A DNA stretch of 64,000 nucleotides from an uncultured Thiotrichales bacterium (GTDB lineage: Bacteria; Pseudomonadota; Gammaproteobacteria; UBA4575), in NCBI GenBank assembly GCA_964636225.1, contig CAZWQM010000007.1, positions 7,518 to 71,517 on the forward strand, written 5' to 3'. This document shows, in pieces, positions 3,448 through 61,795 of this stretch. The stretch's first letter is position 1, and each line of letters begins with the position of its first letter. The notes beneath the pieces were generated by a model. It saw nothing but the letters and a program-made list of their open reading frames with translations, had not been told where the DNA came from and did not search any database. A program made the position numbers and the translations under genes.

Positions 3448-4041
3448 CTATTCTTCTTCGTTATCATCAAGATAGCGATATGTTTTGGCAGAAGCGTTCA
3501 TTGTCATCTTTCCACCATCCTTATCGTCCGGCTTAAGTTGTATATTGTGAAGCGTCACAATGCGTGGCAATGCGGCAACTTCACTGGCGAATGTCCCAAA
3601 CTGGTGAAAATCACCCTGCATAACAAGCTCAATGGATTTTTCCGCATAGAATTCTTTTTCGGATTCCGGCCCCGGTTTGAATAGTTTGACTTCAAGTCCG
3701 CTGGCAAGCGCTGTTTGAGAGATATCTACAATCAACGCAGGAATTTCAGTTTTACTGGGTAGCTGACGCAGCAGAGTACCAAATGTTCTGCGCATTTCTT
3801 CCAGCTGGGCTTTGTGCTCTTTTAAATTAGCCGCTTTTTTAACTTTAACTTCAAATGTGCTACGCAGTTCCATTTCCTTGGCTTTTGCCACATCGAAGTT
3901 GGCTAACTGGTCCTTGGTATTCAGATAAAATCCCAGGCCAATTACGGCCGCAGCAAGCAAGGCTACAAGCATAATTTTTACAGTTAATGGTGCGGTGCCA
4001 ATATTGTTAAAATCCAGATTATTTATATCGGAAAATGTCAT
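3448..4041 (-). CDS. pilO: type IV pilus assembly protein PilO
   Basis: LLRQLPSKTEIP, EFYAE, LPRIVTLHN, AKTYRY. Confidence 0.95.
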   Translation of the reverse strand: MTFSDINNLDFNNIGTAPLTVKIMLVALLAAAVIGLGFYLNTKDQLANFDVAKAKEMELRSTFEVKVKKAANLKEHKAQLEEMRRTFGTLLRQLPSKTEIPALIVDISQTALASGLEVKLFKPGPESEKEFYAEKSIELVMQGDFHQFGTFASEVAALPRIVTLHNIQLKPDDKDGGKMTMNASAKTYRYLDDNEEE

Positions 4042-21056: not shown

Positions 21057-21971
21057 ATGACTAGCAAGACACATACATCTAATTTCAGCTCGGCCTTTGG
21101 CCCGTTGAGCCACTGGCGTGACTACTTGGAATTATGTAAGCCCAAAGTGATTGCCTTAATGGTATTCACCGCGATTGTGGGAATGCTTATGGCAGATCCC
21201 GGCAATGTGTCCTTGTCGACCTTTATCTACGCGACATTAGGGATTGCGCTGGTATCCAGTTCAGCGGCGGCAATAAATCACGTGGCCGACAGTCGCATAG
21301 ATGCTGCCATGGACAGAACCAAACTGCGCCCTTTACCTGCCGGCTCGCTGAGCAAAGCGTCCGTGTTGGCATTTGCCGCCATTATTGGTATCGCGGGTAT
21401 GGCAATATTAATCATAAAGATTAATCTGCTCACAGCCATGCTGACTTTTGCGTCATTGGTAGGTTATGCCGTGATCTACACTATGTATCTTAAGCGCGCC
21501 ACACCACAAAACATTGTGATTGGCGGCGCGGCAGGCGCAACACCGCCATTATTAGGTTGGACTGCAGTTACTGGTCAGATTGATGCGGATGGATTGCTGT
21601 TGTTGCTTATTATCTTTACCTGGACGCCACCGCATTTTTGGGCATTGGCGTTATACCGTAAAGAGGAATACGCTAAAGTGGATATTCCCATGTTGCCGGT
21701 GACACATGGTGATGACTTCACACGACTGCAAATTACTTTGTACACATTGCTGATGTGTGTGATTACCATACTTCCGTATTTGACCGGTATGTCCGGTCTG
21801 GTCTATCTGGTAAGTGTTTTACTGCTGAATGCAGGATTTTTATATTATGCAATTAGTCTGCAGATAACCAAAAGCAGGACGAAGGCGATTAATACCTTCG
21901 TCTACTCTATTATCTATCTGATGGTGTTATTTGCAGTCTTGCTGTTTGACCGATATCTGCCGTTAATTTAA
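21057..21971 (+). CDS. cyoE: protoheme IX farnesyltransferase (heme O synthase)
   Basis: [33 protein letters not shown]. Confidence 0.97.
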
Positions 21972-22831
21972 GCAGCGATATACCCTTGCAACTTTTTCAT
22001 TGCATTATTTTCCAGCTGACGGACACGTTCTGCTGACACACCTAACTGCTCGGCCAGATCCTGCAAAGTCTGTTTGTTTTCAGACAACCAGCGCGCCTGA
22101 ATGATGCTGCGACTGCGATCGTCCAATTCATTCATAGCGGTTAACAGCTTTTCTGTTTGATGTCCGCTCCAATTGTCCTGTTCTATGCTGTTGGCAGGAT
22201 CATCACTCTCACTAGTCAGGTAAGCAGAAGGAGAAGAAATATTGTCTTCATCATCGGCATTGGCGGGTGCGTCAAAACCCAGATCCTGACCACTCAAACG
22301 TGATTCCATTTCCAACACTTCACTGGGTTTTACGCCCAGTTCCATGGCTACAGATTCGACTTCATCGTGATTGAGCCAGCCGAGTTTTTTCTTTTTACCG
22401 CGCAGGTTGAAAAATAACTTTCGCTGCGCTTTGGTTGTGGCCACTTTTACAATACGCCAGTTTCGAATAATGAATTCATGTATTTCGGCACGAATCCAGT
22501 GAACGGCAAATGAAACCAGACGGACATTTAGGGTTGGGTCAAATTTTTTCACCGCTTTCATTAATCCGATATTACCTTCCTGAATCAGGTCGGCCAACGC
22601 CAGTCCATAGCCGCTGTAACCACGTGCAACACGTATTACAAAGCGAAGATGGTGAGTAATTAATGTGCGCGCTGCTTCAAGATCCTGATGATCGCGCAGG
22701 CGCAGGGCAAGATTCTGCTCTTCTTCAGCAGACAGAATGGGCAATTGATGAGCTGCATTGATATAGGCGTCCAGGCTGCCTGCTGTTAAAGTCAGCTCAT
22801 GTGGTTGCGAAATAACCAGACTATTGCTCAT
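21968..22831 (-). CDS. rpoH: RNA polymerase sigma-32 factor
   Basis: [14 protein letters not shown] and RpoH box QRKLFFNLR; next to ftsX. Confidence 0.98.
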
Positions 22832-22866
22832 AACTTTTTATCTCCTCATTCGTACATAAAGTAAGT

Positions 22867-22893
22867 TTAGCACTCCTACAGTTAGAGTGCTAA
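22867..22893. promoter_or_regulatory. CIRCE element (HrcA operator) upstream of rpoH
   Basis: TTAGCACTC-ctacagtta-GAGTGCTAA, perfect consensus, 35 bp upstream of the rpoH ATG. Confidence 0.95.
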
Positions 22894-22909
22894 CCGATTG
22901 TATAGTTCC
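22882..22909 (-). promoter_or_regulatory. candidate sigmaE (RpoE/AlgU) promoter of rpoH
   Basis: Minus strand GGAACTA-N16-TCTAA, close to GGAACTT-N16-TCnAA; rpoH has sigmaE promoters in E. coli and Pseudomonas. Confidence 0.7.
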
Positions 22910-23246
22910 CGCTCCGGCTGGTCTGTTTGGCACATTTAGTTTATCGACCAGATTTATCCATAGAGGGAGAAGTTTGTGGGTATTTTCAATCTATTCAGGT
23001 ACCGTTCATTTATACCCCAACTAGAGGAAAGGGTTGCCCGTTTAAGTACACAGGGCGTTGATCGCCATATCGATGAACGGTCGATGACCAGGAATATTCG
23101 GCAAATCTACATCGTGAATTGTGTCTTATACTGCTTTTGTCATGATTAAATCAATGTCATGTCATGCAATTATCAGTAATAGACACGTCTGCGAAAGATA
23201 AAAATTAGTATAAATATCGCTAAATGTACTTATATTTATTAACCGA

Positions 23247-23267
23247 ATTTTCCGTAATACGGTAAAT
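23247..23267. promoter_or_regulatory. imperfect palindrome, candidate operator upstream of the Nu1-like ORF
   Basis: ATTTTCCGTA-A-TACGGTAAAT (9/10 paired), ending 20 bp before the ATG at 23288. Confidence 0.45.
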
Positions 23268-23287
23268 GCAAATAAAGAGATAAATTC

Positions 23288-23500
23288 ATGCCAGGAGTTC
23301 AAGTAAGCAAAGCGGATCTCGCGCATATTTTTGGAGTGGATCAACCCACAATAGATGGCTGGCTGGAAAAAGGCTTGCCCCATATGCAAAAACGTATTCA
23401 AGACAGGGATCGACAGTCATTTACACGTGAATTAATTTTCGATACGGCAGATGCCATCAATTGGCGATTAACTGCACATAACATCGCCGAAGATTGGTAG
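23288..23500 (+). CDS. stand-alone winged-HTH protein resembling the DNA-binding domain of phage lambda terminase small subunit gpNu1
   Basis: VSKADLAHIFGV..TIDGWLEKGLP...FDTADAINW aligns by eye with gpNu1 VNKKQLADIFGA..TIQNWQEQGMP...YDSAAVIKW (recalled sequence); purine-rich RBS-like AAAGAGA upstream. Confidence 0.75.
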   Translation: MPGVQVSKADLAHIFGVDQPTIDGWLEKGLPHMQKRIQDRDRQSFTRELIFDTADAINWRLTAHNIAEDW

Positions 23501-23517
23501 AGTCTGGTTAGCAGAGG

Positions 23518-24465
23518 CTAACGATAGACTTTGAGCTTATGAGCTACGGCGATCCATGCAGACACAACGCCGAGCATGCTGACAGATATTATAATGCTAC
23601 TGGCCAGGCCAAAGCTGATTCTGCTGAGGTCAAAATCGTTGCCAAATAAAGCGGCCAGTTTTGAGGTGGCCTGATGAACAAGCCAGCTACACAAGCTGAC
23701 TACAAAAAGTGACAGTACCGCACCGGTAAATCCCAGCCAGAATCCAGAATATAGAAAAGGGCGTCGCACATAGGCGTCGCTGGCCCCGACTAACTTGATA
23801 ATTTCCACTTCTGCATGGCGCCCGGTAATTTCCCAGCGAACCACATTGGCAATAATTAAACCAATAGCAAGCAGCAATATAATACTGATTATCCACTGAA
23901 CACGATGAATCACCGCAAGTATCGCTTGTAAGCGCTGATACCAAATTAAATCAAACTGCACTTGTTCCACCTGTTTCAGGCCGCGCAAGTCATTTTCCAG
24001 AGTGATTAATGACTGTAAGTCTGTAAGAGTAGATTCAGGGTTTACAACGATTAAATGAGGCAACGGGTTTTCAGGCAGGCTTTTTGTGAGTGAGCCTAAA
24101 TCCATCTGTTGACGGAATTCTTCGAGGGCTGTTTGTTTGTTTACTGCCATCGCATTGGCAATGCCTTGCATGCTCGAAATGCTTTGTGTCAGTTGTTGTG
24201 CTTGTGCAAAATCAACGTTGTCTTTTAAAAATAATGTAATCTGCTTATCGCTGTTCCAATCATAAGTTAACGCCCGTACGCTTGAAAATAACAGATACAG
24301 GCTAATCGGAATTGAAAGAGCAATGGCGATCATGAGCGTGGTGGAAATGAAAGCAGCAGGACTTTTTTTGAGACGTGAAAAGCTCAGTTTAAAGCTCTCG
24401 ATATGATGCTCTATCCATAGGACAGCGCGAGTGTTTAGATTGGCCTGAGATTTTTTTTTGCGCAT
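23518..24465 (-). CDS. ftsX: cell division permease FtsX
   Basis: ENPLP, EVEIIKLVGASDAYVRRPFLYSG; follows ftsE. Confidence 0.95.
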   Translation of the reverse strand: MRKKKSQANLNTRAVLWIEHHIESFKLSFSRLKKSPAAFISTTLMIAIALSIPISLYLLFSSVRALTYDWNSDKQITLFLKDNVDFAQAQQLTQSISSMQGIANAMAVNKQTALEEFRQQMDLGSLTKSLPENPLPHLIVVNPESTLTDLQSLITLENDLRGLKQVEQVQFDLIWYQRLQAILAVIHRVQWIISIILLLAIGLIIANVVRWEITGRHAEVEIIKLVGASDAYVRRPFLYSGFWLGFTGAVLSLFVVSLCSWLVHQATSKLAALFGNDFDLSRISFGLASSIIISVSMLGVVSAWIAVAHKLKVYR

Positions 24466-24475
24466 ATTTACGGGA

Positions 24476-25129
24476 TTAGCTCACTAATCTTCCATGGTCC
24501 AGGTTTAAAATTTTCTTGTGGAAACCTGATATTAAATTTACGTCATGGCTAGCAATTAATGCACTCACGCCGACCTGATTAAAGTCCATAAATAATTTCA
24601 TGATATCTGAGGACAATTCAGGATCCAGATTGCCGGTGGGTTCATCAGCCAACAGCAAGCGTGGTCTGTGCACAATAGCACGAGCAATACCAACGCGTTG
24701 TTGTTCGCCACCGGATAACGATATCGGATTGGCTTTTTCCTTGTTGAGTAGGTCAACCTTGTCCAGTGCGGCTCTCACTCTTCTGGGTATTTCTTTTGGA
24801 CTAAAGCCATTGATACGCAAAGGTAATGCAATATTTTCAAATACATTACGATCATTAAGCAGGCGGTGATCCTGAAAGACCAATCCCATTTTGCGCCGAA
24901 AAGCGGAAACCATGGTTTTGCTGGCGTGGGTTACGTTTCTTTCATCGAAATACAGCTTTCCACGGGTCGGTGTCTCAATCAGGGCAATTAGCTTTAACAG
25001 TGTGCTTTTACCGGATCCGGAAGGACCGGTGATGAAACACATCTCACCATCTTCCAGTTGTAAATCTATTTGCGAGAGTACTTCACCGCTCTCGGGGTAA
25101 CGTTTACAGATGTTTTGAAGTCGAATCAT
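24476..25129 (-). CDS. ftsE: cell division ATP-binding protein FtsE
   Basis: [39 protein letters not shown]. Confidence 0.96.
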
Positions 25130-61740: not shown

Positions 61741-61769
61741 CTTGACAACGGCAGACTGTACCGTATGAT
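61741..61769 (+). promoter_or_regulatory. groESL promoter (sigma70-like, possibly also sigma32-like)
   Basis: TTGACA(61742)-N16-TATGAT(61764); alternative reading CTTGACA-N13-CCGTAT. Confidence 0.6.
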
Positions 61770-61795
61770 TAGCACTCATCGGGGTAGAGTGCTAA
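61769..61795. promoter_or_regulatory. CIRCE element upstream of groESL
   Basis: TTAGCACTC-atcggggta-GAGTGCTAA, perfect consensus. Confidence 0.97.

Follow-up and report, generated by a model that had tools for sequence, protein, structure and literature searches.

To our knowledge, small terminases are considered components of viral packaging machinery and nothing else. What, then, is an open reading frame for a protein that resembles the DNA-binding domain of one doing between rpoH and ftsX on the chromosome of a gammaproteobacterium: is it debris left by a phage, or a gene that the host keeps, and if it is kept, what might it do? We address this question for a locus within a 64,000-nt stretch of DNA, referred to here as the window, which occurs mainly in estuary metagenomes and whose host lineage is uncultured.

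A stand-alone reading frame between rpoH and ftsX

The gene, its immediate neighbours and the sequence that separates it from rpoH are as follows, in window coordinates.

21968..22831, minus strand: rpoH (sigma-32), the divergent neighbour, assigned as an ORF and as a conserved neighbour across loci
22832..23287, no strand: the divergent spacer between rpoH and the Nu1-like gene, 456 bp, with several genus-conserved blocks in a 13-locus genus alignment
23275..23280, plus strand: RBS-like AAGAGA, 7 nt 5′ of the ATG, read from the sequence
23288..23500, plus strand: the Nu1-like gene, a stand-alone Nu1-type winged-HTH of 70 aa with an ATG start, stop codon included
23518..24465, minus strand: ftsX, the convergent neighbour, followed by ftsE and ftsY, assigned as an ORF and as a conserved neighbour across loci

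The original prediction, made from the sequence, had described an intact 70-aa ORF that diverges from rpoH and converges on ftsX, and this description is exact at 23288..23500 (+). It had also pointed to an RBS-like site and an AT-rich upstream region, and both are there: AAGAGA stands 7 nt before the ATG, with its AGAGATA core kept in the genus alignment, and the spacer has a G+C content of 37.1% as against 44.8% for the window. The base composition of the Nu1-like ORF itself is host-like (44.6% G+C). Its stop codon and that of ftsX are 17 bp apart, and since a terminator-like hairpin is absent from this gap (23500-23518), the convergent transcripts of the two genes may overlap. Scanning for promoters did not yield a convincing sigma-70 site for the Nu1-like ORF: the 1 site obtained lies inside ftsX, with 2.6 expected. 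Rfam, searched with 21500-24600 at E up to 1, returned zero matches. At the far end of rpoH, its stop codon and that of a cyoE-like gene overlap by 4 bp (window 21968-21971).

The protein matches the DNA-recognition domain of Nu1-type small terminases

By sequence, profile and predicted fold, the protein is only the N-terminal winged-HTH of a Nu1-type small terminase (TerS). Residues 5-60 align with positions 2-50 of the 164 in the Pfam profile Phage_Nu1 (E 6.1e-6), at a score of 26.4 bits that falls below the gathering cut-off of 30 bits, and the same profile is matched by 33 of 33 aligned family members, with a best E of 7.9e-8. The protein also matches PHROG 57 (terminase small subunit; E 7.6e-6) and, below the 21.6-bit cut-off, MerR_1 (E 0.0076, 16.8 bits), with no residues left over for a coiled coil or an effector domain; NCBIfam gave no match. 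When the single protein was compared with the PDB by phmmer, the matches were the TerS DNA-binding domains 7lwr (E 3.4e-5), 7lxs and 7lw0, together with lambda gpNu1 (1j9i, E 1.6e-3), and a profile built from the family matched 7lwr at E 1.6e-8, 1j9i at E 1.8e-6 and RppC (6hlk) at E 1.7e-4. A profile search of 1.84 billion representatives recovered 136 proteins at E up to 1e-3, 7 of them at E up to 1e-10; outside the close family, the matches are for the most part full-length small terminases of 150-220 aa, aligned at their N-termini. Members of the family carry the database names ‘terminase small subunit’, ‘phage terminase Nu1 subunit’ and ‘hypothetical protein’, and in the ESM Atlas the matches were confined to small phage and bacterial HTH clusters without names, at 0.93.

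An AlphaFold2 model computed from a diverse alignment of 103 sequences (pLDDT 74.1) has the topology b1-a1-a2-b2-wing-b3-a3; an earlier model from a shallow family alignment had a pLDDT of 59.4 and was excluded from the fold search. Foldseek placed TerS DNA-binding domains at ranks 1-5 (7lwr, E 5.4e-4, TM 0.64/0.82), followed by RacA (5i44), the RdfS excisionase (8dgl_B), a P2 DNA-binding protein (4lhf) and BldC (6ama_B, 6amk_B), with E-values of 0.04-0.06 for 8dgl_B and 4lhf. The a2 helix is invariant in the family (D18-Q19-P20-T21-I22 and W25), the wing loop is 7 residues longer than in the TerS domains and contains the conserved residues K35 and R36, and the protein stops just after a3, where the oligomerisation and TerL-binding parts of TerS would start. 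In a domain tree of 103 sequences and 70 columns, the stand-alone chromosomal forms group together among full-length TerS, a placement from which we drew no conclusion.

The assignment to a Nu1-type winged-HTH that ends before the gpNu1 coiled coil, which the original prediction had made, is thereby borne out: the match to Phage_Nu1 (E 6.1e-6, below cut-off, as is the MerR_1 match at E 0.0076) covers profile positions 2-50 of 164 only, 1j9i is among the PDB matches, and the five best Foldseek matches of the predicted structure are all TerS DNA-binding domains.

The gene is conserved in place and under purifying selection

A Nu1-like ORF lies between rpoH and ftsX at 20 of 20 loci taken from relatives, and the same order of rpoH, Nu1-like gene and ftsX is found at 29 of 32 loci from GTDB species genomes; the two sets have genomes in common, so they are not independent. 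Within the genus, the Nu1-like protein is 84-96% identical to the window copy, as compared with 73-87% for sigma-32 and 44-68% for FtsX, and in other genera its identity (58-67%) is about that of sigma-32 (61-67%), with FtsX at 31-38%. Among the 33 of 66 genus pairs for which dN/dS was computable, the median was 0.034 and the maximum 0.057; the remaining pairs are saturated at synonymous sites (pS ~0.8, pN 0.03-0.10). The Nu1-like gene is under purifying selection at least as tight as that on sigma-32. A 70-aa ORF could on its own be due to chance, but its conservation establishes it as a real gene, and the expectation that short homologues would recur at the rpoH-ftsX junction with dN/dS below 1 agrees with what we observed, the ratio being at most 0.057.

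Lengths in the family are uniform (66-82 aa, mostly 70). One of 20 copies has a premature stop, a TAA after codon 37 in L013/L031 (species genome G008); because the ftsE and ftsX alignments are split there too and the assembly is a single contig, an indel error is as likely a cause as real decay. In another locus (L003; species genome G009), ~320 bp of the spacer between rpoH and the Nu1-like gene are deleted and 145 bp are left, with an intact ORF that is 94% identical, from which it follows that most of the spacer is not essential for retention of the gene.

A solitary gene without phage partners

The original prediction had noted that the gene is solitary, with no phage genes around it, and for large-terminase and capsid families this holds across the assembly, which consists of 50 contigs and is 100% complete by marker genes. 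Three large-terminase families (GpA_ATPase, TerL_ATPase and Terminase_6N) and the HK97 capsid family (Phage_capsid) had no match in the whole assembly, and control genomes were positive; the absence holds for the assembly only, because bins can lose prophages. The Nu1-like ORF is the only Phage_Nu1 signal in the genome. Phage_integrase has 4 matches, all on other contigs, and two of these are full-length, in open frames of 305 and 307 aa, and are taken as XerC/XerD, judged by size only. For the Nu1-like protein, PADLOC-DB gave 0 families at E up to 0.1.

Matches were present in 21 of 61 genomes of relatives (20/36 in the same family, 0/24 in the other families sampled). The order comprises one family with 56 species genomes, and the gene is carried by 32 of these and absent from 24. 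Its occurrence follows genera, with 11/15, 15/15, 2/2, 1/1, 1/1 and 1/1 genomes positive in those that have it and 0/13, 0/3, 0/2, 0/1 and 0/1 in those that do not, and absence falls mainly among the smaller genomes of the order. In four of five gene-less genomes checked, ftsX and rpoH are directly adjacent, ~127-270 bp apart; the fifth (G018) is rearranged. The gene is thus dispensable, given the 24 genomes of the order that do without it and the direct adjacency of ftsX and rpoH there.

In an even sample of the class, 8 of 401 genomes, the window’s own included, had a match at E up to 1e-7. One locus from another family (L062) keeps the order rpoH, Nu1-like gene, ftsX; the remaining matches are stand-alone homologues of 77-82 aa or 71 aa in unrelated chromosomal settings, one of them flanked by an acyl-CoA ligase/FimV-like pair on one side and a large YdbH-like gene on the other, and another next to an HDOD-like gene (these neighbours are named from translations only). 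No phage-like context was seen at any locus of a stand-alone homologue or paralogue that we examined.

Two further small ORFs were observed in relatives. A 66-aa paralogue (L053, 4115-4315; also L054-L056) is 39-46% identical to the Nu1-like protein, matches Phage_Nu1 at E 9e-6 and lies in a conserved, non-phage neighbourhood close to tig-clpP, with acyltransferase-like genes and a gene resembling a membrane protease; it occurs in 4 of the 6 gene-carrying genera and is absent from the window’s genus. A conserved ORF of 53-68 aa lies 3′ of the Nu1-like gene on the same strand (L020, 1775-1969; also L015, L016, L017 and L019), outside the window’s genus, with the pattern ..YYVMNM.N..W.KIS....L.EAK.AY..L....PFARLGG. 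Neither Pfam nor PADLOC gave a match for it, and this query did not recover it from the window’s genome; it may be an operon partner of the Nu1-like gene.

A predicted homodimer

A two-copy complex prediction scored 0.51, as against 0.02 for the best control, a score that, because a dimer of this kind has already been solved, may reflect the model’s memory or likeness and not independent evidence; in the benchmark, 20 of 30 proteins solved as same-chain pairs attained 0.51, as did 1 of the 23 solved as single chains. Between runs at least 96% of the contacts agreed, and the pLDDT of the partner was at least 74. The predicted interface consists of residues 1-4, 13-18, 53-54, 57, 60-61 and 64. 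In lambda TerS, the homodimer is described, in an excerpt of PMC6739421, as forming through the patches I11/F12/G13 and S43/A44/I47/A51, and the predicted interface aligns with these a1 and a3 patches. The family shows no variation at I14, F15, G16, T53, A54 and I57. Modelling thus points to a symmetric homodimer formed via a1 and a3.

The divergent spacer and control of rpoH

Two elements of the spacer are referred to below.

22867..22893, no strand: CIRCE (HrcA operator), TTAGCACTC-N9-GAGTGCTAA, an exact match upstream of rpoH, to which it belongs
23247..23267, no strand: imperfect palindrome ATTTTCCGT-AAT-ACGGTAAAT, centred 31 nt 5′ of the ATG, from the genus alignment

CIRCE, for which we used the consensus given in part of PMC545781, is present with at most one mismatch at 54 of 54 rpoH loci, which span the order and one further family and include 5 from genomes that lack the Nu1-like gene. 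The window’s genome has three CIRCE sites, namely the one at rpoH, a perfect one 5′ of groES-groEL at 61769-61795 and a third, with 2 mismatches, on another contig, and it also contains hrcA. With CIRCE upstream and hrcA in the genome, rpoH has a candidate regulator of its own, and sigma-32 appears, from these sites, to be under HrcA control in the lineage. At four loci (L015, L017, L018 and L019), rpoH and the Nu1-like gene are separated by a response-regulator gene. The original prediction had suggested an effect of the Nu1-like protein on rpoH; the CIRCE at 54 of 54 rpoH loci, with or without the gene, and the response-regulator gene that intervenes in some genera both speak against it.

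The inserted response-regulator gene is divergent from the Nu1-like gene and encodes ~270-285 aa, with a receiver domain (Response_reg, E 2e-27) and a C-terminal half that carries no domain assignment. In three metatranscriptome runs, contigs match parts of rpoH at 100% identity (window 21929-22861), and one of these contigs extends 30 nt past the rpoH start codon on its upstream side, ending short of CIRCE; these runs are stored as contigs, and the uncovered stretch over the Nu1-like ORF is uninformative on its expression.

Could the spacer hold a target for the Nu1-like protein? Its length is 336-499 bp in 12 of 13 genus loci and 145 bp in L003. Most genus loci retain the core of the palindrome, CCGT..ACGG; in L009 both sides have changed, giving CCGC..GCGG. 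The palindrome at 23247-23267 is, on its sequence, a candidate operator or 5′-UTR hairpin. Neither it nor the genus spacer blocks were found in other genera. In the 400 nt upstream of the gene at 14 loci from several genera, the best 9-mer allowing one mismatch was common to at most 11 of 14, as against 9-10 of 14 in shuffled sequence, and because it does not rise above these controls, we identified no operator.

The genus-conserved blocks are TTATCGACCATACTT..CCATAGAG at ~22940-22966, CCCAACTAGAGGAAAGGGTTGC at ~23014-23038 and CGATAAACGGTCGA at ~23070-23090, followed at ~23125-23170 by a hairpin-like element, ACTGCTTTT-GTCATGAT-AAAAGCAGT, with repeated GTCATG/GTCATAC, which is degenerate in the window itself. 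Loci L033-L048 have a block of ~110 nt, ..TACGTCGCTTCG..GCACGCTTCACCC..TTGTTTCAAA..GTATCTTT.., located ~140-260 nt 5′ of the Nu1-like start (in L034, for example, at ~3745-3860). This block has been conserved in several genera, irrespective of whether the response-regulator gene is adjacent, and is absent from the window’s genus; it may represent an ncRNA or a regulatory region.

A probable captured domain kept by the host, and the alternatives

We consider it probable that the gene encodes a terminase DNA-recognition domain that was captured and has been retained on the chromosome as a dimeric DNA-binding protein with a regulatory or architectural role. An ancestor of this uncultured estuarine/marine gammaproteobacterial lineage would have captured the N-terminal domain of a Nu1-type TerS, which would then have been inherited vertically at the rpoH-ftsYEX junction. 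That it was retained as a host gene, as the original prediction had proposed, is in keeping with its fixed rpoH-ftsX position across genera and a dN/dS of at most 0.057. Judging from the sequence, the protein should bind DNA; as a homodimer joined via a1 and a3 in the manner of the lambda TerS DNA-binding domain, it would use the invariant a2 helix and the lengthened basic wing (K35, R36) to bind specific sites in host DNA. By analogy with BldC, RacA and Xis-type winged-HTH proteins, it may act as a small transcription regulator or as a DNA-architectural protein, and the palindrome 31 nt upstream of its own start would be a candidate autoregulatory site within the genus.

Two alternatives would tie the gene to mobile DNA. 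A decaying remnant of a small-terminase gene from a prophage or satellite might be suspected from the database name ‘terminase small subunit’ and from the nearest more distant homologues, most of which are complete TerS proteins (150-220 aa) aligned through their N-termini. This alternative, which the original prediction had also raised, is contradicted by conservation, uniform length and synteny: the members measure 66-82 aa throughout, no more than 1 copy in 20 has a stop, dN/dS does not exceed 0.057, and the gene order holds across genera and into one other family. The composition is moreover host-like, and the terminase and capsid families are absent from the assembly. We rejected the remnant as exceedingly improbable. 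An excisionase or recombination directionality factor (an Xis/AlpA/RdfS-like winged-HTH) serving an integrase encoded elsewhere would account for the resemblance of the fold to the RdfS excisionase (8dgl_B) and the P2 DNA-binding protein (4lhf), at E 0.04-0.06. Sequence similarity, however, is to TerS and not to excisionase families, the position is fixed with no flanking element, and the contig has no integrase, the full-length Phage_integrase matches being on other contigs, all of which makes such a role very improbable.

The other two alternatives accept a retained gene and differ in what it would act on. The solitary domain could interfere with phages, either by heterodimerising with an incoming Nu1-type TerS via a1/a3 or by occupying cosB, and so block the packaging of cos phages; in a variant of this proposal it would be a core-genome, vertically inherited, Rpp-like TerS mimic that disables cos recognition without a mobile island. 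There is precedent in Rpp, which, as described in part of PMC6739421, mimics the TerS DNA-binding domain and blocks packaging by forming a heterocomplex with TerS, and RppC is a weak match to the family profile (6hlk, E 1.7e-4) and a match in fold. The predicted interface corresponds to the residues of the lambda TerS homodimer and is invariant, and the patchy occurrence (32/56 in the order, 8/401 in the class sample) also counts in its favour. Yet the recognition helix and the basic wing are invariant too, which heterodimerisation alone would not require; the gene has one fixed core-genome position across genera and no defence island, its dN/dS is very low and it is more conserved than sigma-32 within the genus, a PADLOC match is absent, and the paralogue and the distant homologues also sit among housekeeping genes. 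We regard interference in general, and equally its Rpp-like variant, as quite unlikely. A dedicated regulator of rpoH, which would bind the shared divergent spacer and modulate sigma-32 transcription, we regard as unlikely. It would suit the divergent arrangement, with a spacer of 336-499 bp and conserved blocks in 12 of 13 genus loci, and the much shorter ftsX-rpoH spacer (~127-270 bp) of gene-less genomes; it has to contend with a perfect or near-perfect CIRCE at 54 of 54 rpoH loci regardless of the gene, the response-regulator gene that intervenes in L015 and L017-L019, the intact ORF that L003 keeps with only 145 bp to rpoH, the lack of a motif common across genera, and paralogues and distant homologues located away from rpoH.

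Relation to known proteins and significance

The closest known relatives are the DNA-binding domains of lambda gpNu1 and other TerS proteins (1J9I, 7LWR, 7LXS, 7LW0; PF07471), homologous winged-HTH domains with 32-39% identity over ~57-65 positions and with the same dimer-interface residues in a1 (I-F-G) and a3. Full-length Nu1-type TerS proteins, however, have ~160-200 aa and include the coiled-coil oligomerisation region and the TerL-binding C-terminus that the Nu1-like protein lacks, and its wing is 7 residues longer and basic. Unlike their genes, it is encoded without terL, cos context or phage genes, by a host gene that is passed on vertically. Rpp (RppC) of Gram-negative PICIs has a TerS-like winged-HTH as well and, according to part of PMC6739421, pairs with the TerS DNA-binding domain, but RppC is a protein of 139 aa or more with a C-terminal dimerisation domain of its own and belongs to a mobile island, whereas the Nu1-like gene specifies 70 aa at a core-genome locus that lacks the features of an island.

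Among cellular proteins, BldC of Streptomyces is of the same size class and is likewise a single stand-alone winged-HTH. As described in part of PMC5859096, it is a MerR-like protein of 68 residues without effector or coiled-coil domains that regulates development, and it is a monomer that binds direct repeats head-to-tail. BldC thus provides an example of a domain this small serving as a global regulator. The resemblance is one of fold only (6ama_B, E 0.06, TMq/TMt 0.53/0.65), and in contrast to BldC a symmetric dimer is predicted for the Nu1-like protein; a repeat target of the BldC kind was identified neither in the genus spacer alignment nor in the 14-locus 9-mer search. RacA and Xis/RdfS-type proteins (5i44, 8dgl) share the MerR-like winged-HTH fold, used there for DNA architecture and not for effector sensing, but here too the resemblance is structural only (14-19% identity), the Nu1-like gene is without an integrase partner, and sporulation is irrelevant here. 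Classical MerR regulators differ in having the coiled-coil dimerisation helix and the effector-binding domain that the Nu1-like protein is without.

Minimal MerR/Xis-like winged-HTH proteins are already known, and the Nu1-like protein is for that reason not a new category; our literature search found no paper on a stand-alone chromosomal protein of the Nu1 type. In this lineage, the DNA-recognition module of TerS has been kept by itself as a cellular gene in several genera and in at least one more family, where the database name ‘terminase small subunit’ would wrongly flag a prophage. Should the protein be a terminase poison, chromosomal immunity would gain a new class; should it be a regulator, a phage-derived minimal winged-HTH would join the small group of BldC-like factors.
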